Shown here piece after piece: positions 4,140 through 26,995 of a stretch of 64,000 nucleotides of DNA. Position numbers and translations under genes: made by a program. The notes under the pieces are model-generated. The model searched no databases. It had not been told where the DNA came from and saw nothing but the letters and a program-made list of their open reading frames with translations. The stretch's first letter is position 1. Every line of letters begins with the position of its first letter. The stretch comes from Candidatus Micrarchaeota archaeon (GTDB lineage: Archaea; Micrarchaeota; Micrarchaeia; Anstonellales; Bilamarchaeaceae): positions 1-64,000 of the forward strand of contig JBBSVN010000004.1 in NCBI GenBank assembly GCA_038046765.1, given 5' to 3'.

Positions 4140-7100
4140 TTATCCTCCAACTAGTTTAATATGCCCGTGCTCTTTTTCATAGATTTCGCCTTTTTTAAGT
4201 AATTCATTTAATACTTTTCTGGCATCAGGCTCTTCGATTCCAGCATTGACACACTCCGTAATTACCTTTTCGATTTCAGCACTATCCTCTTTCTTAAGTA
4301 TTAGTTTGATAACTTCGATTACAGTATCGACTTTCTGCATCTTGTCCCGATCAGTTTTTGATCTGCCAGTCGCAATTACATCAACATCAAAAGCGCCAGT
4401 AACCTTGTCAGTCATTACCTGCCTCATAACATAGTTCATAAGGGAAATAGAAATTTCGGCATCTTTTGCTTCAACAACATGACTTAATCGCATCTTAGAA
4501 TTTGCCTCAGCTAACCTGACTAAACCTTCTAAATAACGGGGAGTAATCGCAACACTTCCAGAATCTTTGCTTCGCTTTCTTAAATCAACATAAAATTCTT
4601 TTATCTTGTCACTGGCTGCACTAGTCATTTTAGGCAGGACATTTCTTCTAGCATATGCAATATATTTTCTTAATAAATCCCGGTCTAAAAGACGCTCTTC
4701 TTTATTTACTTCTTTACCCATGTGCGTATCTAGAATATGCTGAGCTAACTTGGAGTCTTTTTCTTCATCTAAGACGTCAACAATAGGAAAAATAAGGTCG
4801 AACCGTGACATAAGTGAGGGGGGGATATTAAACTGCTCTGCTAAATTTTTAGACTGGTCGAACCGCCCATATTTCGGATTAGCTGCTGCTAAAATTGCAG
4901 TTTTAGCTTTAAACCTTGCAACCATACCCGCCTTGGCTACGCTAATCATTCCGGCTTCCATAGCTTCGTGCAGCGATGCGCGGTCTTCATCATCAATTTT
5001 ATCAAATTCATCGATTTGTGCAGTTCCGCCACTTGCTAAAACTAAGGCACCAGCTTTAAGCGTCCACCCGCCTTCGCCTAAATCGTCCTTTTCTGCACTG
5101 ACAGTAAGTCCAGCTCCACTTACTGATTTACCACTTACGTAAATACCCTTAGGTGCAATTTCATTAACGCTTTGCAGGATTCTGCTGTTGTGAACAAATA
5201 AACCATTGGCTACAAAATTATGCGTTTCTTCTACCTGTAAATCGTAAACCCATTTTAGATCTGATTTGATTTTTTCTATTTTTATTATTTTATCCCAAAA
5301 GATATTCGCCTCGCTCATCTTTTGAAGCAAGGAAATATTTCGTATTGCAATATCATTTTGGCTATCTTTTTTGGAAGCGTGATCTAATAGCGCTCGAACA
5401 ACTTTTGTAAGTGTAGAATAAGATGGATTTCTGTCCCCTCTTTCAAAGTGCTGATAGGTAGATCTTGGAATTCCCATATCGAACTGAGTAACCCCCAAAA
5501 GTTTTCTTGTTTCTTTTAGAACGGCTTTTAAGTTCGGAACGATATCTATATTTGTATTGCAAGTTTTTGGGAGTAGCGATGCTTTTTTATTTTTAATAGA
5601 GGCAGTAAAACCAATTTGATCCATGAAAATTTTTGCATTTATACCGCATGAGATTAGTCTCCAATATTTGGTTTTTTTATGATTTTTAGCATTAGTTGCC
5701 CGAGAATATGTCTCATGCAATTGAGAAATTATTCCAAACCTCAAAAGAAGTATTTGTACTTGTTCTAGTAAATTAAAACTGGCAGATACAACAGTAATTC
5801 CTTCCTTGCTTACATGAGCTTCGCAATCATAGTAAGCCTTTAGAAATTCTTTTACAATTTCATTTGGACTTCTTAAAATTTCATTTGGAACAGATTTATG
5901 AAATGAAGTTTTTATCATTCCCATATTTTCAAGAATTCTTCCTAAATCAACAGAATGTACGTTTATGGCAAATGAACCATGCCTTTTAACTTTTAGGTAT
6001 TGAAGGCCAAAAGAAGAGACAATATTTTCAAAATCAACCAATAGTTCCTGATCAGCATTGGTAAAACTAATTTCATAAGTGGAATCTGTTTTTCTTAGAT
6101 AACTATCACCGGTGCAATAACCGACAAAGCGAGCGAATTTTTCATCGATAAAATCTGGCAATTTAATATATTTTGCATTTGTTTTTCCATGAACAACTGC
6201 TGGAAGTTTTTGTAATGAACCTTTAATGGGCAATGTCTTGGCGCTAGCTATAAAGTCTCCGATTAATAACTGCTCTGCTGATTTAGCTTTTATAAGAGAC
6301 TCTTCTGAGGTAAAAAAAGGATGTGATGGACTTACAGTTATTTTTTTGCCAGTATATGTCTTTAGCGAGTATAAAAATTCAGGAGACTTTAGTTTCCAAA
6401 ATATATTTGCTTTACTAGATTGAACTTTTCCGTATAAACCAAGTGAAGGCAGGTCGTGATTTGAAACCCCATAATAACCCTCGCTATCTTCCCGTTTATC
6501 CTTTTGAAGAACTTGTTCGACCATTTCTTCTATTTTTTGTATTGAGCCATCAGCTAAAACAATTTTCGTATCCCCAGTTACACACTTAGCCAAACCTGGA
6601 TCACCAATAAGTAACACATGAATATCATCTCTTATAGGAAGACCCCCTTGCATTTTCTTTCCCCGTGTTCCTCCAAAAAGTTGCAGCGACATTGCATGCT
6701 TAACTTCCTTGTGACCATAGATTGCTGGCGCAACGGATTCGATAATAAGATGATCAATGTTCGTATCTCTTGAAAGCTCTAGGATTCGTCTTTCTTCTTC
6801 TTTTGAAATATCTATTTCTTCAAATTCCCTTTTCATGCTTTTTACATGATTTACTTCGATATACCTAGCATACACCATTTCTTGTTTTTGCTTGGATTTA
6901 ATTGGAGGTCTTATTCTAAGTATGCCAACAACTTCGACATTTTCACCAGGAGAAATTGAATTAACAAGGTCATCTTCCATCCATAATTCGATCCTTGCCC
7001 CAGGCGCCCCACCAGTAACCCGCTCTAAAAGTTCCTGTGTTTCTGCTCTTTGAATATCAGTAAATTTGCTTTCATCATCTACCTGACGAAGCGAGAATTT

Positions 7101-7595
7101 TTTACAGCTTTCACATCGCTTTGGTGGTTGCATATTTTTTGTTACAATTATTTTTATTTTGGTATCGCAAACGTCGCACAAAAATGCGGCGATCTTTACT
7201 CGATTCATTACTTCGGCTCTTTTTGTTACCACAGATTTGAAAGCAACCATCCCATTAATATTAACGGAACTTAGATTTTGGATGAGCATGTCGTCATCAG
7301 GCATATTCATAAACCGGACATTTGGATTAAACTCGTCAATTCCATCTGGAAGAACAAGTCGCATATCTTTTATGGCCTCCTGTGCCGAGGCAATAAGAAG
7401 ATCAGGTTCAATCTTTAATCGGTCAGCTAAACCATAGTCAAACTTTTCAAGTTCAAGATAGTCAACCATTAAACTTTTCTTTTTTGGATAAACTAAAAGT
7501 AGTTCTTGTATTTTTGGGAAATAAACTGACGTAAAGAAATCATGAAATGAAGAAATATATGCGGTTGTATCTATATCCTGTGTCATATTAATCAT
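4140..7595 (-). CDS. mcm: Replicative helicase MCM, intein-containing
   Basis: CDVC..CESC zinc finger, Walker A GDPGLAK|S, Walker B IDEFDK, AAANP, SRFD arginine finger; about 685 aa after intein removal. Confidence 0.97.
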   Translation of the reverse strand: MINMTQDIDTTAYISSFHDFFTSVYFPKIQELLLVYPKKKSLMVDYLELEKFDYGLADRLKIEPDLLIASAQEAIKDMRLVLPDGIDEFNPNVRFMNMPDDDMLIQNLSSVNINGMVAFKSVVTKRAEVMNRVKIAAFLCDVCDTKIKIIVTKNMQPPKRCESCKKFSLRQVDDESKFTDIQRAETQELLERVTGGAPGARIELWMEDDLVNSISPGENVEVVGILRIRPPIKSKQKQEMVYARYIEVNHVKSMKREFEEIDISKEEERRILELSRDTNIDHLIIESVAPAIYGHKEVKHAMSLQLFGGTRGKKMQGGLPIRDDIHVLLIGDPGLAKCVTGDTKIVLADGSIQKIEEMVEQVLQKDKREDSEGYYGVSNHDLPSLGLYGKVQSSKANIFWKLKSPEFLYSLKTYTGKKITVSPSHPFFTSEESLIKAKSAEQLLIGDFIASAKTLPIKGSLQKLPAVVHGKTNAKYIKLPDFIDEKFARFVGYCTGDSYLRKTDSTYEISFTNADQELLVDFENIVSSFGLQYLKVKRHGSFAINVHSVDLGRILENMGMIKTSFHKSVPNEILRSPNEIVKEFLKAYYDCEAHVSKEGITVVSASFNLLEQVQILLLRFGIISQLHETYSRATNAKNHKKTKYWRLISCGINAKIFMDQIGFTASIKNKKASLLPKTCNTNIDIVPNLKAVLKETRKLLGVTQFDMGIPRSTYQHFERGDRNPSYSTLTKVVRALLDHASKKDSQNDIAIRNISLLQKMSEANIFWDKIIKIEKIKSDLKWVYDLQVEETHNFVANGLFVHNSRILQSVNEIAPKGIYVSGKSVSGAGLTVSAEKDDLGEGGWTLKAGALVLASGGTAQIDEFDKIDDEDRASLHEAMEAGMISVAKAGMVARFKAKTAILAAANPKYGRFDQSKNLAEQFNIPPSLMSRFDLIFPIVDVLDEEKDSKLAQHILDTHMGKEVNKEERLLDRDLLRKYIAYARRNVLPKMTSAASDKIKEFYVDLRKRSKDSGSVAITPRYLEGLVRLAEANSKMRLSHVVEAKDAEISISLMNYVMRQVMTDKVTGAFDVDVIATGRSKTDRDKMQKVDTVIEVIKLILKKEDSAEIEKVITECVNAGIEEPDARKVLNELLKKGEIYEKEHGHIKLVGG
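5187..6584 (-). mobile_element. Intein (466 aa) with LAGLIDADG-type homing endonuclease and HTH-like insert, in the MCM Walker A motif
   Basis: GDPGLAK|CVTGDT ... VYDLQVEETHNFVANGLFVHN|S; FVGYCTGDS and FLKAYYDCEA blocks. Confidence 0.95.
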
Positions 7596-7869: not shown

Positions 7870-10800
7870 TCATGCATCTTTTTCTTTCCCGCTTAAAAAG
7901 ATATGATTAAGCGCATAAAGTAAAACTATCGAAAAGATAAATATTGTGACAAGAATCATGAATATTTGAACAGAATCATATTCAGATTTAGAATCTAAAA
8001 ACTGAGCTGAATCCGGATTACTTTGATCTTTTTCGATTGCTAAACCCGTTTGATCTAGGGCGGTTTTTAGATTAGGATCATCACTGACCCTAGCCGTAGT
8101 ACCACTTGAACTTTTATCAGCACCGCTTATCTGATTTACGGATTTTTCAGATGAAGGAGCAACAACCTTATTTTGCGTAGATGTAGCTGTGTCTGTTCTT
8201 ACCGCAGGAGTATTTGAATTTGTATTCGAACTAATTGAAGGGGGTTCGCACCGGCTCGTATTAGCATTGCAAACATATTCATTGTAACCTTGGGCAGTGC
8301 AGTCATTGTTGGTCCGGCATCCCCCGTTAGTGCAGTAACCATAAGGCATTTTGCAGTATTGAACAGTGGAACATTGATTGTTTTGCCTGCATGGTAATTC
8401 CCAGCCGCTAGAAGAGGAATCAACACAAACTTCGCCGTTACAAAATAAGTCTGGCTTGCATTGATTTGCGTTACTACAAATTGAACCGACAGAACCTAGG
8501 GAAGAATTTTCAGTTTGAGAATTAGAAAAACTTTGATTATACTGGCAGATACTACTAGCATTGCAGAAATACCTTGGATAAGGAAGTTCCTGTGTTGTAC
8601 AATCGTTATTATTTCTACATCCACCACGAACGCAGTAACCATGTGCAGATAGACAATACTGTGTATTAGTACATTGATTATTCGATCGGCATGCATTACT
8701 TCCAACTGAACTTGGATCAACACATTTCTGATCAATGCATGAAAGATTTGTTTGGCAATTGTTTGCGATTGTACATGTTGCATTAACTGAACTTGGTGGC
8801 GAATTTTGCGAAGGAGATTGACCGTAAGCGCACGACCTTGTATTTGAAGAAACATTTAATGCACAATAAAAACCAAAATAACAGTCACCATCAACATTGC
8901 AATTCATTCCATTAGGATTTGGTGCTGATGAATTATATTCGCAGATGCTGCTTGCGTTGCAGAAGTATTGTGGATATGCAAACCCCGCGCCCAAAGTACA
9001 ATCATTGTTGGTTCTGCATCCCCCAGATTGACAAACTCCATCGTAGGTAAAACTCGTACCGATTCTGCAAAATTCAGTGTTTTGACATTGAGATATTGAC
9101 CTGCATACAACACGGCCATAAGTATTAGGATCAGAACATACCCTGCCTTGGTAAGATGTGATGCAGGCTAGATTTGCCTGACAGTCATTTGCATTAGAAC
9201 AACTCGCACCAATGATGCCAGGAACGACTAGAGGAGCAATCCCATTTATAGTTACAGCAAAACTCATCGATTGACCTAAATTAGAAATTCGGGAAATAGT
9301 AATACCAGAGTAACTGCCATCGCTATAATTTAGATCAAGTGTCCCGCCAAAATTTTCCCCTTTCCAAAGTGCATTGTAATCAGTCGCACTGGAACCGGTT
9401 ACATACCTGATTAATCGGATTCCTCTTCTACCCCATTCACCTTGTGTCTTCGCCCAATTACTCGCACTTACGCCAGTTGGCGCAGGTAAATTGTTGTAAA
9501 CGTTCGAATTAGTTATGATATGCCAAATTGCGATACCGCTATCAGGAAGCGTATTATCGTAAGCTGTGCCTCGTTGTATGTTTTCAATAATAAAGTATTC
9601 ACTACCACCATTACTATTTGATGGGTTTGTAATTACGTAGGGAATTGATCCAGAACCGCGCGAATTTAGAGAAAATGTCCCACTATTTGTAATTATATTA
9701 GGATTTATCCAACCTAAAATGTATCGTTCATAAGCATCAAGATAATTTAGATTGTAGGAGAAGTACATAAGCGAATATTCGCCAACAGCATAAGGATAGA
9801 AAAAAGTATAATACAGGTCTGGTAAATTCAAAAATAAATGAGATAATTCATGAGCTGCAGTTCCCGCACCAATGCTAACCGGGTTTCCAGCGTATAATTC
9901 AGCAATCGTTGTAAACCTAATTCCATTTATTATTAATGGTTGAACGCTCGGATATTCCCTACCAACAACTGGCCGATTAGTACCAAAATCCCCGTTTTGA
10001 GGTATGACCATCATTATGCCCAATTCGTTAGGTGTAAGAACGCCATCTCGATTATCATCGCATGACGCAAAATTAAAATCCCTTGATGCTTTTGTTATTG
10101 CTTCAGCATATTTTGCATTGTGACCGATTATCCAGCCGTCCCCATCAGCGTCATTAGTGTCAGGTTGGCTCCAATAATAAGACGCAGGTTTATCGGCAGT
10201 ATACCAATCAGTAGTCGCAACTTCGGAAATAGTAAAACGATTGTTTGAGACACTTGAAAAATAACCACTAACGCTATTACTTGAACCAAAGAAAATGTTT
10301 CGCACTGCTTGTTTAGTTGGAGCAGGATCAGTTGGCCTTTGTGGATCCCATAAAATTAATAGAACTCTGCCTGTTCCACTTACTTGTTGTCCGGAAGTTC
10401 TCACACTCGAAGTGCCCGAGCAACCAGAACTCCCGATTAAAAGATAGGAAATATTTTGTGTCGAATTTGTAATATTTGATAGATTAGCTAAAATAAAAAC
10501 TTCTTTATCTGTAATTTTTTCCTTTGTTTTTTCTGATGTTTTTTCTACAATTTTATCTTTGTCTTTACTATTCTTGCCATGAATAAAATCATCAATAATA
10601 GTTAATACATGTTCAATTATCGACTTTTCTTTTTTTGGAGTTTCTACAACGGCTTTCGTTTCTGTTGTTTCTTTTGCTGACATTTCTTTTTCAGTCGTTT
10701 CGTTTACAGATTTATTAGTCGAATTTACATTTATAGTTAAATCGTTATTGGCATTAAAATCATCGGAGATACTTGCATCTACATATTTTGTGCTTGAACT

Positions 10801-10884
10801 TATGATTTCTTTTGCAGTAATAGAAACGGCAATTACAGATATTACTAGAACTAAGCTAATTACTCCTAAAAGTATATGTTTCAC
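7870..10884 (-). CDS. Membrane-anchored M6-family (immune inhibitor A-like) metalloprotease with Cys-rich repeats
   Basis: N-terminal signal/TM; AAHELSHLFLNLPDLY and YSLM; three CxxxxxC/GGCRxNNDC repeat blocks; C-terminal TM helix. Confidence 0.85.
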   Translation of the reverse strand: MKHILLGVISLVLVISVIAVSITAKEIISSSTKYVDASISDDFNANNDLTINVNSTNKSVNETTEKEMSAKETTETKAVVETPKKEKSIIEHVLTIIDDFIHGKNSKDKDKIVEKTSEKTKEKITDKEVFILANLSNITNSTQNISYLLIGSSGCSGTSSVRTSGQQVSGTGRVLLILWDPQRPTDPAPTKQAVRNIFFGSSNSVSGYFSSVSNNRFTISEVATTDWYTADKPASYYWSQPDTNDADGDGWIIGHNAKYAEAITKASRDFNFASCDDNRDGVLTPNELGIMMVIPQNGDFGTNRPVVGREYPSVQPLIINGIRFTTIAELYAGNPVSIGAGTAAHELSHLFLNLPDLYYTFFYPYAVGEYSLMYFSYNLNYLDAYERYILGWINPNIITNSGTFSLNSRGSGSIPYVITNPSNSNGGSEYFIIENIQRGTAYDNTLPDSGIAIWHIITNSNVYNNLPAPTGVSASNWAKTQGEWGRRGIRLIRYVTGSSATDYNALWKGENFGGTLDLNYSDGSYSGITISRISNLGQSMSFAVTINGIAPLVVPGIIGASCSNANDCQANLACITSYQGRVCSDPNTYGRVVCRSISQCQNTEFCRIGTSFTYDGVCQSGGCRTNNDCTLGAGFAYPQYFCNASSICEYNSSAPNPNGMNCNVDGDCYFGFYCALNVSSNTRSCAYGQSPSQNSPPSSVNATCTIANNCQTNLSCIDQKCVDPSSVGSNACRSNNQCTNTQYCLSAHGYCVRGGCRNNNDCTTQELPYPRYFCNASSICQYNQSFSNSQTENSSLGSVGSICSNANQCKPDLFCNGEVCVDSSSSGWELPCRQNNQCSTVQYCKMPYGYCTNGGCRTNNDCTAQGYNEYVCNANTSRCEPPSISSNTNSNTPAVRTDTATSTQNKVVAPSSEKSVNQISGADKSSSGTTARVSDDPNLKTALDQTGLAIEKDQSNPDSAQFLDSKSEYDSVQIFMILVTIFIFSIVLLYALNHIFLSGKEKDA

Positions 10885-10981: not shown

Positions 10982-12199
10982 ATGAAATCCGTAATCTTAT
11001 TTATTATTGATGGACTAGGAGATTTACCAACACCAAAGACACCGTTGCAGGTTGCTAAAAAACCCAACATAGATTATTTAGCTAAAAATGGCGCAACGGG
11101 ATTAATGTCTACAATCTCTTTAGGTGTTACTCCTGGAAGTGATGTTTCGCATTTACAGATATTTGGTTATGAACCAAAAAAATATTATCCGGGACGAGGT
11201 CCTTTAGAAGCGCTCGGAGTTGGACTACAACTAAATGACGGCGATGTTGCATTTCGGGCAAACTTTGCTACAGTAAAGGCAAACCAAGTAGTTGACCGGA
11301 GGGCGGGAAGAATAACAACTCAAGATGCAAGAAAATTAGAAAATATAATAAACATGCGCATCGATGATGTTCAAGTTATTTTCAAAAGCAGTGTTGAACA
11401 TCGCGGAGCATTAGTATTACGTGGGCCAGGTTTAAGTCCAAATATTAGTGATACTGACTCCCATAAAATAGGCGAACTTCCAAAATGCGTACCCACTGAT
11501 AGTTCAATGGAAGCAAAAAAAACTAGCGAAATAATTAACAAATTCACAGAACTAGTTTACCAAAAATTAAGTACTCACGAACTTAATAAAGATCGCGAAC
11601 TTCCTGCCAATATGATTGTACTTAGGAGCGCTGGAAGTTTTAGAAAAATTCCAAGTATAAGCGAAAAATTTGGAATAAAATCAGCTTGCGTAGCTGGCGG
11701 AGCTTTGTACAAAGGCGTTTCAAAGTATATTGGAATGAATGTAATTGAAGTAAGTGGAGCAAGCGGAGATGCAAATACGAATCTTAAAGCAAAGGCATTG
11801 GCGGCCATCGAGGCTAGTAAAGCAAATGAATTTGTATTTTTACATGTCAAGGCAGTTGATAGTTTTGGACACGATGGCGACTTTAAGAAGAAAACAAAAA
11901 TGCTTGAACGGATCGATCGTGAACTAGTTAGCGAATTAGTTAAGCATGTTAAAAAGAATAATAAAGACGACCAATGTTTTGTAATAATTACAGGAGATCA
12001 CTCAACACCTTGCATAAGAAAGGCCCACTCAGGCCATGAAGTACCTATACTTATTTTTGGGCAAAGCGAGAGAAAAGACGAAGTTAAGAAGTTTGATGAA
12101 ATAAGTTGCGCAAAAGGAATTTTAGGCCATATAAAAGGAAGCGATGTAATGAATATTGTTCTTAACCTTACGGAAAAGGGGAAGATGTATGGAAGTTAA
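10982..12199 (+). CDS. apgM: 2,3-bisphosphoglycerate-independent phosphoglycerate mutase, archaeal type
   Basis: IIDGLGD, PGSDVSHL, GRGPLEALG, HVKAVDSFGHDG, TGDHSTP. Confidence 0.95.
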   Translation: MKSVILFIIDGLGDLPTPKTPLQVAKKPNIDYLAKNGATGLMSTISLGVTPGSDVSHLQIFGYEPKKYYPGRGPLEALGVGLQLNDGDVAFRANFATVKANQVVDRRAGRITTQDARKLENIINMRIDDVQVIFKSSVEHRGALVLRGPGLSPNISDTDSHKIGELPKCVPTDSSMEAKKTSEIINKFTELVYQKLSTHELNKDRELPANMIVLRSAGSFRKIPSISEKFGIKSACVAGGALYKGVSKYIGMNVIEVSGASGDANTNLKAKALAAIEASKANEFVFLHVKAVDSFGHDGDFKKKTKMLERIDRELVSELVKHVKKNNKDDQCFVIITGDHSTPCIRKAHSGHEVPILIFGQSERKDEVKKFDEISCAKGILGHIKGSDVMNIVLNLTEKGKMYGS

Positions 12200-12213
12200 T
12201 GCGGACGCTTTGC

Positions 12214-13286
12214 TTAAGGGGGAAATAACTTGTTAAACTTTGCAACAACTTTTTTTCTAAATTGATATGTATTGGCAAATTTTGCATATGCTAGCCAACC
12301 GTCTAAACTTTGCAAAACAGCCACTTTTGTTATTTCTCCTTTCTCGTACTTTTGCTTGAATCTTACAAGGCGTTTCCAGATTCTTCTTGCATTGCTCTTT
12401 TTTAGTAAACGATACTTTGGAAAAATCCTAAAACCAAGAAAATTTATTCCTCTTTTTATTTGAATTATTCGGGATTTTTCTGGATGTAATTTTATCTTAA
12501 GTTTTTTCTCAAAAAACTCTTCTATTTTAGTTTTCCATTTTACCAGAACTTTTTGACTTATGTGCAAAATTACAAAATCATCAACGTAGCGTAAATAATA
12601 TTTTGCTTTTAGCTGTTGTTTTACAAAATGATCAAATTCATCAAGATAAATATTAGCAAAAAATTGAGACGTAAGATTGCCAAGTGGCATACCTCTTTGA
12701 GGATTTTCTGTTTTGTGGTTTTTCAATATTATCTCAATTAACCAAATTATTTTTTCATCCTTTATTTTGACCCTGATTTTTTCAAGCAAAATGTTGTGAT
12801 CAACGCTCTGAAAATAATGTTTTATGTCTGCTTTTAGTACGTAACCAATAACTGCGTTTTTAGAGCTCTCTCTCTCTCTTCAAAAATTTGATGGTTAAAC
12901 GTGGTTTCTCTCAAGAACTGTTCAAAACGATTAATGGCGTTGTGCGTACCTTTTCCTTTTCTATTTGCAAATGAGTCATGGATAAACCCTTTCTCAAAAA
13001 TAGGAGTTATGAGATTACATAACGCATGATGAACGACTCTGTCACGAAAATGGGAGGCACTTATTTTTCTTGTTTTTGGATCTCTTACAACAAATGTTTT
13101 TATTGGACTTGGTTGATAAGTGAAGGTTTGAAGTTCAAACTGAAGTTTTAACAAGTTTTCTTTTAAATTTGCTTCAAATTCAATAACATACTTTTTGAAA
13201 GTTTTTCTTTTTCTAGCTTTCTTGAAGGCAAATACGAGATTTTCATAAGAACAAAGCTGAGCATAGAAATTTTTGTAAGATTTCAT
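12214..13286 (-). pseudogene. DGR reverse transcriptase, split by a frameshift in an (AG)7 tract; 356 aa if one AG is removed
   Basis: ORF1 has FRDRVVHHAL and DSFANRKGKG; the second frame has YVLKADIKHYFQSVDH, GMPLGNLTSQFFANIYL, YLRYVDDF and INFLGF. Confidence 0.9.
12866..12879. repeat. (CT)7/(AG)7 microsatellite at the RT frameshift
   Basis: Plus strand reads gagCTCTCTCTCTCTCTtc; encodes EERERA in ORF1. Confidence 0.95.
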
Positions 13287-13332
13287 AAATAAATATAAAG
13301 AAAAAAATTAAAAATAGAATGCAACCCATAGT

Positions 13333-13424
13333 CATTTCGTAACCATTGGACGGCCTATTGTCAAGGTTGACATTCTGCCTGTTGATGTCGTTGACGTTGT
13401 TGTAGCCGAGCCTAACCGGACCAA
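13333..13424 (-). repeat. DGR template repeat (TR)
   Basis: Non-coding and AAC-rich (reads GPVRLGYNNVNDINRQNVNLDNRPSNGYEM); 74/92 identical to VR. Confidence 0.95.
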
Positions 13425-13571
13425 AGGTAACCCGCTTATTATAAATAATATGCTAAAAAACATATTTCACTGCAGTTTCAATTTTCGCAAAAAAACAAAA
13501 CTACTAATTGTCACTGCTGTATTTCACAGCCAACAATCAAATGATTATCGGCACTATAAGCGAGTGTGTGG

Positions 13572-13589
13572 CTAGAGTTTGCACTCTAG
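13572..13589 (-). terminator. Hairpin with GCAA loop between the target stop and TR (terminator or DGR-RNA element)
   Basis: Plus strand CTAGAGT-TTGC-ACTCTAG, a perfect 7-bp stem. Confidence 0.4.
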
Positions 13590-13619
13590 AATTAAGAAAA
13601 AGAATAAAAGAATTTAAAA

Positions 13620-14492
13620 TTAATCCTGTCGCAAGGTTTCTAGAAGTCTTACAATTGCTTCAATCTTTGCATCGCTTCCTCTAATGATTAATTCAGAGTC
13701 TCCTTCATTTAATTGAATAACTTTAGATTGTCTACTAGTTTTAATTTCTTCTTTTGTAGCCGGCGTGCCAGCTTCGCTGGCCTCTGTTACCACCCCGTAA
13801 CCATCGGACGGCCAATCGCCAAGGTAGACACCCTGCCCGTCGACGTCGCCGACGTAGTCGCAGCCGAGCCTAACCGGACCAACTCTTTTATCAACTCTCC
13901 ACAAATGTCTAGCTTTAATTGAATAATCTACTTGACTTGCTTGTGGTATGCCATGAATCGCATCTGGTAAATACCAACCATTTAGAACTGGAAAACCTTC
14001 AACTAAATCAACTCTTTCAACCGATACTGGTAAAACTAATCTGATTGTTCCTTCTTGGTATATACCATAATCAGGATGCTCTGTTACTAAAATTCCGTTT
14101 TTTGTCCTAAGATATTTTTCTGGAATAGGATGTATCCAATTGTACCCTGTATTTGAATCTACATCTACGACTGCATATTGATATCGATTTTTATCTAATT
14201 TAGGAAAATCTCCCAAATCTTTAAGTTTTTGTGCAGCTGCTCCTAATTCTACGTTTGGTTCTACGTAAGCAGTCATTGTTCCAGCCCAGCAAGCAAATGC
14301 ACCTCTAACTTGTTGCCACTCATCGCTTTCAACTAATGCGTTACTTACTCTTTTAACTGAAGCAATAACTCTGCTTTTGTTATCTGCTTTTGCTATTCCT
14401 TCATCAAAAGGAAGTCCTTGTGATCTTGGTATAAATACTTCTAATTTTGGTCCTCTTATTCTTTGAGTTGGTTGTTGGGTTGTTGCATTCAT
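13620..14492 (-). CDS. DGR target protein (variable protein), function unknown
   Basis: Contains the VR (GPVRLGCDYVGDVDGQGVYLGDWPSDGYGV); no signal peptide or TM segment seen. Confidence 0.9.
   Translation of the reverse strand: MNATTQQPTQRIRGPKLEVFIPRSQGLPFDEGIAKADNKSRVIASVKRVSNALVESDEWQQVRGAFACWAGTMTAYVEPNVELGAAAQKLKDLGDFPKLDKNRYQYAVVDVDSNTGYNWIHPIPEKYLRTKNGILVTEHPDYGIYQEGTIRLVLPVSVERVDLVEGFPVLNGWYLPDAIHGIPQASQVDYSIKARHLWRVDKRVGPVRLGCDYVGDVDGQGVYLGDWPSDGYGVVTEASEAGTPATKEEIKTSRQSKVIQLNEGDSELIIRGSDAKIEAIVRLLETLRQD
13767..13781 (-). promoter_or_regulatory. GC-rich hairpin with GAA loop 9 nt downstream of VR (DGR homing stem-loop candidate)
   Basis: GCCAGC-GAA-GCTGGC on the minus strand. Confidence 0.75.
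13791..13882 (-). repeat. DGR variable repeat (VR)
   Basis: 18 mismatches to TR, all at TR adenines (15 A>G, 3 A>T), changing 15 codons. Confidence 0.95.
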
Positions 14493-26628: not shown

Positions 26629-26995
26629 CCCCTACTTTAATATCTTTTGATATATCCCCAATGAAGGTATTTAACATCTTACTTAAGAGATCGATATCAT
26701 TAATAGTATTAGTATATAGATTATGATCGATGTAATCTAAGTCTTTAGATAAGAGGATAAAATGTTCGGATTCCTTAACTGAGCCGTATGAATTATAGAG
26801 AAATCTTAGAAAGTCTTTCTTAGATGCGCGTCCACAACCTTCAGCAATATTTGCACCGATTGAACTAGATGCACGCCTAAGTTGATTAGTTAAAGAAAAT
26901 TTTTTTGAGTCCGGAAAAGATTTTGTAATTTTGTATATTTTAAGAGTTAGTGCATAGCTTTTTTGCCATATATCTAGTTTTTTAAAATCACGCAT
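26594..26995 (-). CDS. Four-helix-bundle protein (23S rRNA IVS-protein / Avd-like fold)
   Basis: FKKLDIWQKS..FP..LTNQLRRASSSIGANIAEGCGR..FLRFL..GS..E. Confidence 0.92.
   Translation of the reverse strand: MRDFKKLDIWQKSYALTLKIYKITKSFPDSKKFSLTNQLRRASSSIGANIAEGCGRASKKDFLRFLYNSYGSVKESEHFILLSKDLDYIDHNLYTNTINDIDLLSKMLNTFIGDISKDIKVGVAQSSLPNAQS

Follow-up and report, generated by a model that had tools for sequence, protein, structure and literature searches.

The DGR cassette and its setting

The window (the whole 64,000-nucleotide stretch of DNA that was analysed, from a tiny groundwater archaeon) contains a DGR whose parts are arranged on the minus strand in the order of target gene (14492-13620), a non-coding stretch, template repeat (TR; 13424-13338) and RT gene (13286-12214, designated RT1 here). 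The features of the cassette, all on the minus strand, are the following, with the DUSEL4-type motifs as the main text of Paul et al. 2015 (PMC4372165) gives them:

13620..14492, minus: target gene 1, 290 aa, with no Pfam match and with paralogues on contigs C1 and C16
13796..13882, minus: variable repeat VR1, with 15 of 15 mismatches to TR1 at TR adenines
13792..13797, minus: IMH-like motif CGGGGT, read from the sequence (TGGGGT in the DUSEL4-type DGR)
13767..13781, minus: 6-bp hairpin with a GAA loop (GRA-triloop type), inside the target gene, 14 nt past the VR
13422..13589, minus: Rfam RT-16 structured RNA directly 5' of the TR (88.2 bits against a gathering score of 50, full model 1-158)
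13338..13424, minus: template repeat TR1, AAC-rich, 87 nt
13334..13339, minus: IMH*-like motif CGAAAT, at the 3' end of the TR, read from the sequence (TGGAAT in the DUSEL4-type DGR)
12214-13286, minus: RT gene overall, in two frames
12834..13286, minus: RT N-half ORF, 150 aa, the product of the 7-unit allele, reaching the GKGTH motif-2a region
12866..12879, minus: simple repeat (AG)7, located between motifs 2a and 3 in the linker of the RT, seen in the sequence, in run contigs and in relatives
12214..12879, minus: RT C-half open frame (DIKHYF, GMPLGNLTSQ, YVDD, thumb), with a match to RVT_1

The element is a genuine DGR. The C-half of its RT matches the Pfam family RVT_1 (E 5e-18) and bears the marks of the DGR class, namely motif 4 GxxxSQ (GMPLGNLTSQ) together with YVDD, and the adenine-specific TR/VR pair, the IMH/IMH* pattern and the hairpin are all present. 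Avd is a frequent accessory gene of DGRs, though not a universal one; there is no avd gene in the cassette and no match to bAvd (PF22296) in the genome; the cassettes of the related loci L129 and L133 likewise have no ORF of at least 70 aa between target and RT. Genes for PF05635 four-helix-bundle proteins occur at window positions 26669-26983 (minus strand) and at G000:C16:22506-22820 (G000 being the genome to which the window belongs), and they might be stand-ins for Avd; a similar-looking ORF lies just downstream of the RT of L133.

The relevant sections of PMC5737381 describe RT motifs as RNAs located close to RT genes, with a possible role in DGRs; the RT-16 RNA found here is probably the 5' part of the DGR RNA. 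Its presence in a cassette without avd connects the RT-16 motif to a DGR, and short common blocks are visible upstream of the template repeat of the second DGR described below. Elsewhere in the window, two large minus-strand genes were labelled by eye or by weak matches: an MCM-like helicase of 1151 aa (4140-7595) that contains an insertion resembling an intein, with C...HN|S ends, and a 1004-aa secreted protein with a HELxH metalloprotease-like motif, many Cys-rich repeats and only a weak Pfam match (7870-10884).

A dinucleotide tract sets the frame of the RT gene

The tract between the two halves of the RT gene reads (CT)7 on the plus strand at 12866-12879. With its seven units the gene is out of frame, in the +2 phase; the N-half ends with ...FEERERALKTQLLVTY*, without the motif-3 Asp and YVDD, and the C-half frame reads RERESSKNAVIGYVLKADIKHYFQSVDH...GMPLGNLTSQ...YVDD and continues to 12214. 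When the number of units was changed in silico to 5, 6, 7, 8 and 9, products of 140, 356, 150, 142 and 358 aa were predicted, 6 or 9 units putting the two halves in frame. The first-pass annotation had predicted a stop after 150 residues with seven units, an uninterrupted RT of 356 aa with one AG fewer, the retention of motifs by both halves and the placement of the tract in a linker ahead of DIxxYF, and each of these predictions is borne out: the GKGTH region is in the N-half, DIKHYF, GMPLGNLTSQ and YVDD are in the C-half, and the tract lies between motif 2a and motif 3 with DIKHYF downstream of it. Its placement of the break exactly in (AG)7 has to be qualified. The tract and the break are both real, but the open frame of the C-half follows a TGA at 12882-12880 and that of the N-half ends at 12836, and from the sequence of RT1 alone the change of frame might sit anywhere in 12879-12837; it is comparison with the sequences of relatives that locates the break in the tract.

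No ATG, GTG or TTG was found in this gene between the tract and the motif-3 Asp, and the C-half therefore cannot start alone with a full active site. Split expression by re-initiation was considered and set aside for this reason; among out-of-frame genes of relatives an ATG precedes the motif-3 Asp in 0 of 29 and a GTG or TTG in about half. The tract has one of the defining properties of a contingency locus, in that it is a pure simple repeat inside coding sequence whose length sets the frame.

The tract in sequencing runs

Logan contigs of the runs X1 and X3 (both of study P1) match the window over 11900-13779, with no difference and no gap. For X4, from study P2, a contig of 151 nt and depth 2.2 agrees with the window throughout 12818-12968. 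X1 is a possible source of this DNA and X3 comes from the same study, and X4 is independent of both. The tract is spanned in three of four runs from two studies, X5 having no listed piece across it, and no length variant of the 12866-12879 tract occurs among the listed spanning contigs of either study, all of which have (AG)7. Since contigs lose rare alleles, this is evidence for a consensus of (AG)7, beside which minor (AG)6 molecules could go unseen. The first-pass annotation had allowed for an assembly error, in which case the reads should be essentially all (AG)6; with the contigs of three runs and two studies giving (AG)7, such an error at the RT1 tract is unlikely.

An X4 contig over 13473-13890 carries a VR1 sequence identical to that of the window (0 differences), which fits an OFF state of the RT and proves little. 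The short contigs over VR1 are shallower (depth 6.6 in X1 and 5.2 in X3, against about 10.5), but we do not take this dip as VR diversity, because a paralogue has the same flanks and short pieces vary equally elsewhere. A search of viral contigs for the tract plus its flanks found it absent.

A second RT and a third gene with the same tract

AG-alternating runs of at least 11 nt occur only three times in this 1.5-Mb genome, and all three are (AG)7; an order-4 Markov model predicts 0.001 such 14-mers. Two of the three are at the same linker site of two DGR RTs. The second DGR (G000:C4:70753-73197, locus L209) lies outside the window and consists of RT2, TR2 and a 330-aa target. RT2 (C4:71825-70753) is likewise put out of frame by an (AG)7, at C4:71405; site and phase match those of RT1, and the two RTs have 77%/67% amino acid identity with synonymous sites near saturation. 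When gene conversion between them was sought, the synonymous differences were found to dip (9 of 31 codons, nt 300-405), with similar dips elsewhere. A further X4 contig, over 12853-13004, has 21 differences from the window and no gap, matching the 21 differences between RT1 and RT2 there, so that the tract of RT2 probably has the same length in study P2.

The VRs of TR2 are at C4:72423, C4:137372 and C1:24793, and their mismatches are confined to adenines (13 of 13, 16 of 16 and 15 of 15, respectively). Together the two TRs have at least five VRs, four of five differing from their own TR only at adenines; the other, a remote VR of TR1 in a paralogue of target 1 (G000:C1:53856-53951), has 8 of 11 mismatches at A, 3 non-adenine mismatches and a 9-nt in-frame insertion. 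Two remote targets, at G000:C4:137400 (minus strand) and C1:24830 (plus strand), are 600 and 642 aa long; they carry their VR at the C-terminus and have hydrophobic segments in the middle, and from motifs recognized by eye their N-termini look like Ser/Thr kinases.

The third (AG)7 is in a gene unrelated to the RTs, at G000:C4:124903-125822 (L208:1404-2323), which begins with GGTGA, an ATG and eight codons, followed by (AG)7 and a frame of 295 codons. The tract separates the start from this frame in the same phase as in the RTs, which by analogy would be the classical layout of a 5' phase-variable gene. It shares 24 nt with the RT2 tract, 10 of them outside the repeat on its upstream side, and this prefix does not occur in the other AG-tract RTs. 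No homologue was found in 98 family genomes, the start pattern occurs in 0 of 98 relatives, a search of the protein database at 162-517 aa returned none but the gene itself, and the Atlas gave weak HEAT-like leads only.

No match to MutS_V or NucS was found in this 89.7%-complete genome; their absence, if real, would raise slippage rates. Mononucleotide runs were also seen. Runs of C9 and C10 at G000:C3:85430 and C8:19798 have near-identical flanks, belong to two different genes and lie between a TATA-like TTATAAAC and a GGTGAT-ATG start, which makes them candidates for promoter-spacer phase variation; another run, G11 at C1:11169, is likewise intergenic.

Repeats at the same site in related RTs

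Related RTs were collected with the C-half, excluding the tract, as the query, from 61 and then 176 related genomes and two public collections. The 207 loci found include 185 that have both halves and the anchors, and these gave 162 distinct linkers; the other 22 loci, which are missing one half or an anchor, were left out, although the site carries a repeat in at least 5 of these. A repeat is present in 35 of the 162 distinct linkers: G8-22 in 18, C9-12 in 6, AG runs of 11-24 nt in 9 and AC in 2, tract sizes to be read with the caveats that L004 spans NN and that the G22 of L002 and the tract of L131 may be inflated. An in-frame A9 linker (L204) was counted as having no repeat. The first-pass annotation had been open to the outcome that homologous RTs have no repeat at this site; those relatives that have a repeat there have G, C, AG or AC runs of differing length, in three phases.

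The frame is broken in 29 of the 35 genes with a repeat (18 in the +1 and 11 in the +2 phase, the remaining 6 being in frame) versus 4 of 127 without one. The association of repeat with broken frame gives a Fisher p of 3e-21, a value that overstates its strength because the repeat-bearing genes are largely of one clade. Against the two thirds expected to be out of frame at random, 29 of 35 is a modest excess (p=0.027), calculated over kin that are not independent. Among the 35 closest RTs (at least 58.8% identity), 28 have a repeat in the linker, which totals 3,915 nt, and 0 have one elsewhere in the gene (33,099 nt). Five genomes were selected because they have an AG tract in the RT, and 7 of their 8 AG runs of at least 12 nt are at RT linkers; in five selected for a G/C tract the same is true of 5 of 13 G/C runs of at least 9. 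Rarity in the genome is thus combined with retention at one site across relatives, as is observed for contingency loci.

On a quick tree built from 65 rows the repeat units are intermingled, with a G10 tract within the poly-C clade and RT1 (AG) as sister to a poly-G clade, which suggests that the linker site has switched its repeat unit several times. The closest comparison is between L021, which has an AC run of 13 nt and is out of frame, and L129, which has 11 nt and a full ORF in frame; over 1,820 aligned nt, one AC unit is all that distinguishes them, although the two assemblies may represent the same population and one of them may have slipped at this unit. The organism of the window is a Micrarchaeote: L031, from a genome of its family (G120), has the same linker as L048, a record named Candidatus Micrarchaeota.

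Several other loci deserve mention. The contigs of L038, L130, L131 and L137 start at the RT repeat or just ahead of it, as if assemblies break there. Two out-of-frame linkers of 116 nt (L132 and L135) have short G runs only and are perhaps contracted tracts. Nine RTs (L085, L093, L101, L108, L118, L159, L176, L194 and L200) have runs of G8-11 or AG at another place, a second loop immediately ahead of GMPLG; these are from more distant DPANN, several being Woesearchaeota/Pacearchaeota-type records, and their phases were left uncounted because the query favoured intact C-halves. L094 and L097 have G runs further downstream in the RT.

The linker, and the upkeep of out-of-frame genes

The best match in the PDB for the in-frame relative L133 is 8UB7 (E 1e-44), which we take to be the Bordetella phage bRT, far ahead of group II intron RTs. 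The linker constitutes an insertion relative to 8UB7, about 19 aa long, and in-frame changes of its length should accordingly be tolerated; the span from anchor to anchor ranges from 75 to 192 nt among the in-frame genes listed.

For the downstream halves of the 22 closest pairs, pN is 0-0.14 and pS is 0.31-0.87 (an identical pair aside). In both halves pN is far below pS, which indicates purifying selection. A further stop occurs in 1 of 29 out-of-frame genes, versus 3 of the 123 repeat-free genes that are in frame. Of the 29 out-of-frame loci, 17 yielded a TR/VR pair, with at most one non-A mismatch in 15 of the 17 and totals of 251 A and 13 non-A mismatches; only 4 in-frame repeat loci have such a pair. 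Recent pseudogenisation, which had been named as an alternative at the outset, fits poorly with purifying selection on both halves and a second lesion in only one gene of 29.

A proposed length-dependent switch, and its alternatives

We consider it likely that (AG)7 is a contingency locus of the replication-slippage kind in the RT gene, gating the mutator and resting OFF. That the frame-breaking (AG)7 is real, and that relatives have four kinds of repeat at the same spot, make a heritable on/off switch of hypermutation the most likely reading. The tract would sit immediately ahead of catalytic motif 3, in an insertion loop that varies in length and is dispensable, where slipped-strand mispairing during replication might gain or lose AG units. 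Alleles with 6 or 9 units would yield a full RT (356 or 358 aa) capable of TR-guided A-to-N rewriting of the target VRs; alleles with 5, 7 or 8 units would yield only a catalytically dead N-terminal piece, and the cell and its progeny would keep their VRs. With the consensus usually OFF, hypermutation might come in bursts from rare ON sublineages, whose cells would rewrite their VRs, slip back to OFF and retain the result. A subpopulation might in this way diversify while the rest keeps a selected VR. We infer replication slippage as the cause, and likewise reversibility in this population, the rates of switching and the benefit.

A mechanism acting on DNA and blind to the strand predicts that the coding strand of some genes will have G runs and that of others C runs, as was found. 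The interchangeable G, C, AG and AC units and the occurrence of both off phases also point to a process at the level of DNA and not to a ribosomal signal. A point on the other side is that all three AG tracts of this genome share their length and phase, which independent random switches need not produce.

The best of the alternatives is transcript slippage, in which realignment of RNA polymerase would make some in-frame mRNA from out-of-frame DNA, as a constitutive dimmer that may also act beside slippage at the DNA level. It would account for a DNA consensus that is mostly out of frame in genes that are under selection and have clean TR/VR pairs, and the third tract shares its 10 upstream bases with that of RT2. 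The uniform length and phase of the three (AG)7 tracts, together with the lack of a length variant among the run contigs, keep it alive as a rival or a partner. It sits poorly with the two off phases and many lengths seen in relatives, with a near-identical pair that differs in DNA, and with the limitation of the 10-base prefix, which is not common to the other AG-tract RTs. Furthermore, pure runs of G, C, AG and AC are typical substrates of replication slippage, whereas slippage by RNA polymerase is best known on A/T runs. On balance we consider transcript slippage unlikely, at something like one chance in six.

It is improbable that the linker is a mutational trap, that is, an accidental low-complexity site of frameshift loss at which the out-of-frame genes are recent pseudogenes and no switch is selected. 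The DiGReF survey (PMC3521204) does describe DGR RTs that lost their function recently and still have clean TR/VR pairs, and among the relatives L041 is a broken copy and L022 has a second frame break. Such a trap leaves unexplained why four repeat units occur at one site, why glycine runs are coded by pure G in genomes nearly free of such runs, why two deeply diverged paralogues are broken at the same site, and why 28 of 29 out-of-frame genes have no second stop.

Programmed ribosomal frameshifting to yield a full RT, as proposed for the three-ORF RT of the Quimbyvirus DGR, is more improbable still. That case, in the account given in the sections of PMC8008677 on this RT, sets a precedent of a frameshifted and apparently active DGR RT, and both halves are conserved here; but a programmed shift is expected to go in one direction while the relatives need both (18 in +1, 11 in +2), no slippery motif is common to the G, C, AG and AC tracts, and no stable structure lies downstream (z=+1.03, 170 of 200 shuffles folding as well). 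Least probable, and largely refuted at the RT1 locus, is a sequencing or assembly error with a true allele of (AG)6 and repeat errors in the relatives, for although repeats are error-prone and the contigs of four relatives start at the tract or immediately ahead of it, an ungapped (AG)7 is found in three runs from two studies, single 31-letter words span the 14-nt tract, and the same error would be needed in RT1, RT2 and the third gene.

For the slippage switch we lean, by a small degree only, towards a broader reading in which a single type of repeat in this genome would control both DGRs, whose targets number at least five and include two kinase-like ones, and also a third, unrelated gene. 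This would be a two-tier mutator that has arisen repeatedly in Micrarchaeota and, with a second RT loop used, in other DPANN lineages, in which slippage licenses rare bursts of hypermutation, as part of a small archaeal phase-variable set in a genome where no mismatch-repair gene was found.

Implications

To our knowledge, how DGRs turn on and off is an open question; a DGR that was always active would go on overwriting variants already selected. A repeat-length switch offers a concrete mechanism of DGR control that is testable from metagenomic reads alone and, if true, an instance of repeat-driven phase variation in archaea. Because gene callers split such RTs into two ORFs, many DGRs of this clade are probably overlooked, or called dead, in surveys that require the RT to be full-length; 29 of the 35 repeat-bearing RT genes here are split. 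An engineered tract could tune mutagenesis tools based on DGRs.

Comparison with known systems

Paul et al. 2017 may mention purine/G tracts in DPANN RT genes, so that a repeat-gated DGR RT may not be new in print. We found no report of one in the literature consulted, which included PMC8867640, PMC5758913, PMC8632793, PMC8144416 and PMC5737381. In the cassette itself there is much that is known. The DUSEL4-type DGRs of DPANN Nanoarchaeota (Paul et al. 2015, PMC4372165, main text) are alike in their RT, in the adenine-specific TR/VR pair, in the IMH/IMH* pattern, in a GRA-triloop hairpin inside the target gene and in having several cassettes per genome. They differ from the present DGR, which has the RT-16 RNA in place of an avd-like ORF between target and RT and an RT split at a repeat; the main text of PMC4372165 makes no mention of a homopolymer, frameshift, tract or slippage.

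Other DGR RTs with broken frames have been described. The Quimbyvirus DGR RT (Benler et al. 2021, PMC8008677) also occupies more than one frame while its TR/VR indicates activity; for this RT two programmed frameshifts were proposed, with no repeat tract mentioned in the sections that deal with it, and the present RTs have instead a length-variable repeat with both off phases in relatives. Some of the inactivated RTs treated in the DiGReF survey (PMC3521204) similarly lie broken beside a clean adenine-only TR/VR, but the lesions given there are scattered ones of several kinds (nonsense, IS insertion, frameshift), whereas the genes of the present clade are broken again and again at a single repeat site.

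The closest analogues of the tract are in bacteria. Dinucleotide CT/GA contingency tracts are found in Helicobacter, and the poly-G/C contingency genes of Campylobacter and Neisseria, in the descriptions that were consulted, have like the present RT genes a pure coding run that is rare elsewhere in the genome and whose length sets the frame. Compared with the bacterial loci so described, the present tracts are in an archaeon, lie in an insertion loop in mid-gene and not near the 5' end, and change their unit between lineages at a fixed site. What is known can thus be stated as a DPANN-type DGR cassette joined to a tract that would, by analogy, work like a bacterial contingency repeat, with the difference from the bacterial genes considered here that the gated product is itself a mutator enzyme, one mechanism of localized hypermutation controlling another.
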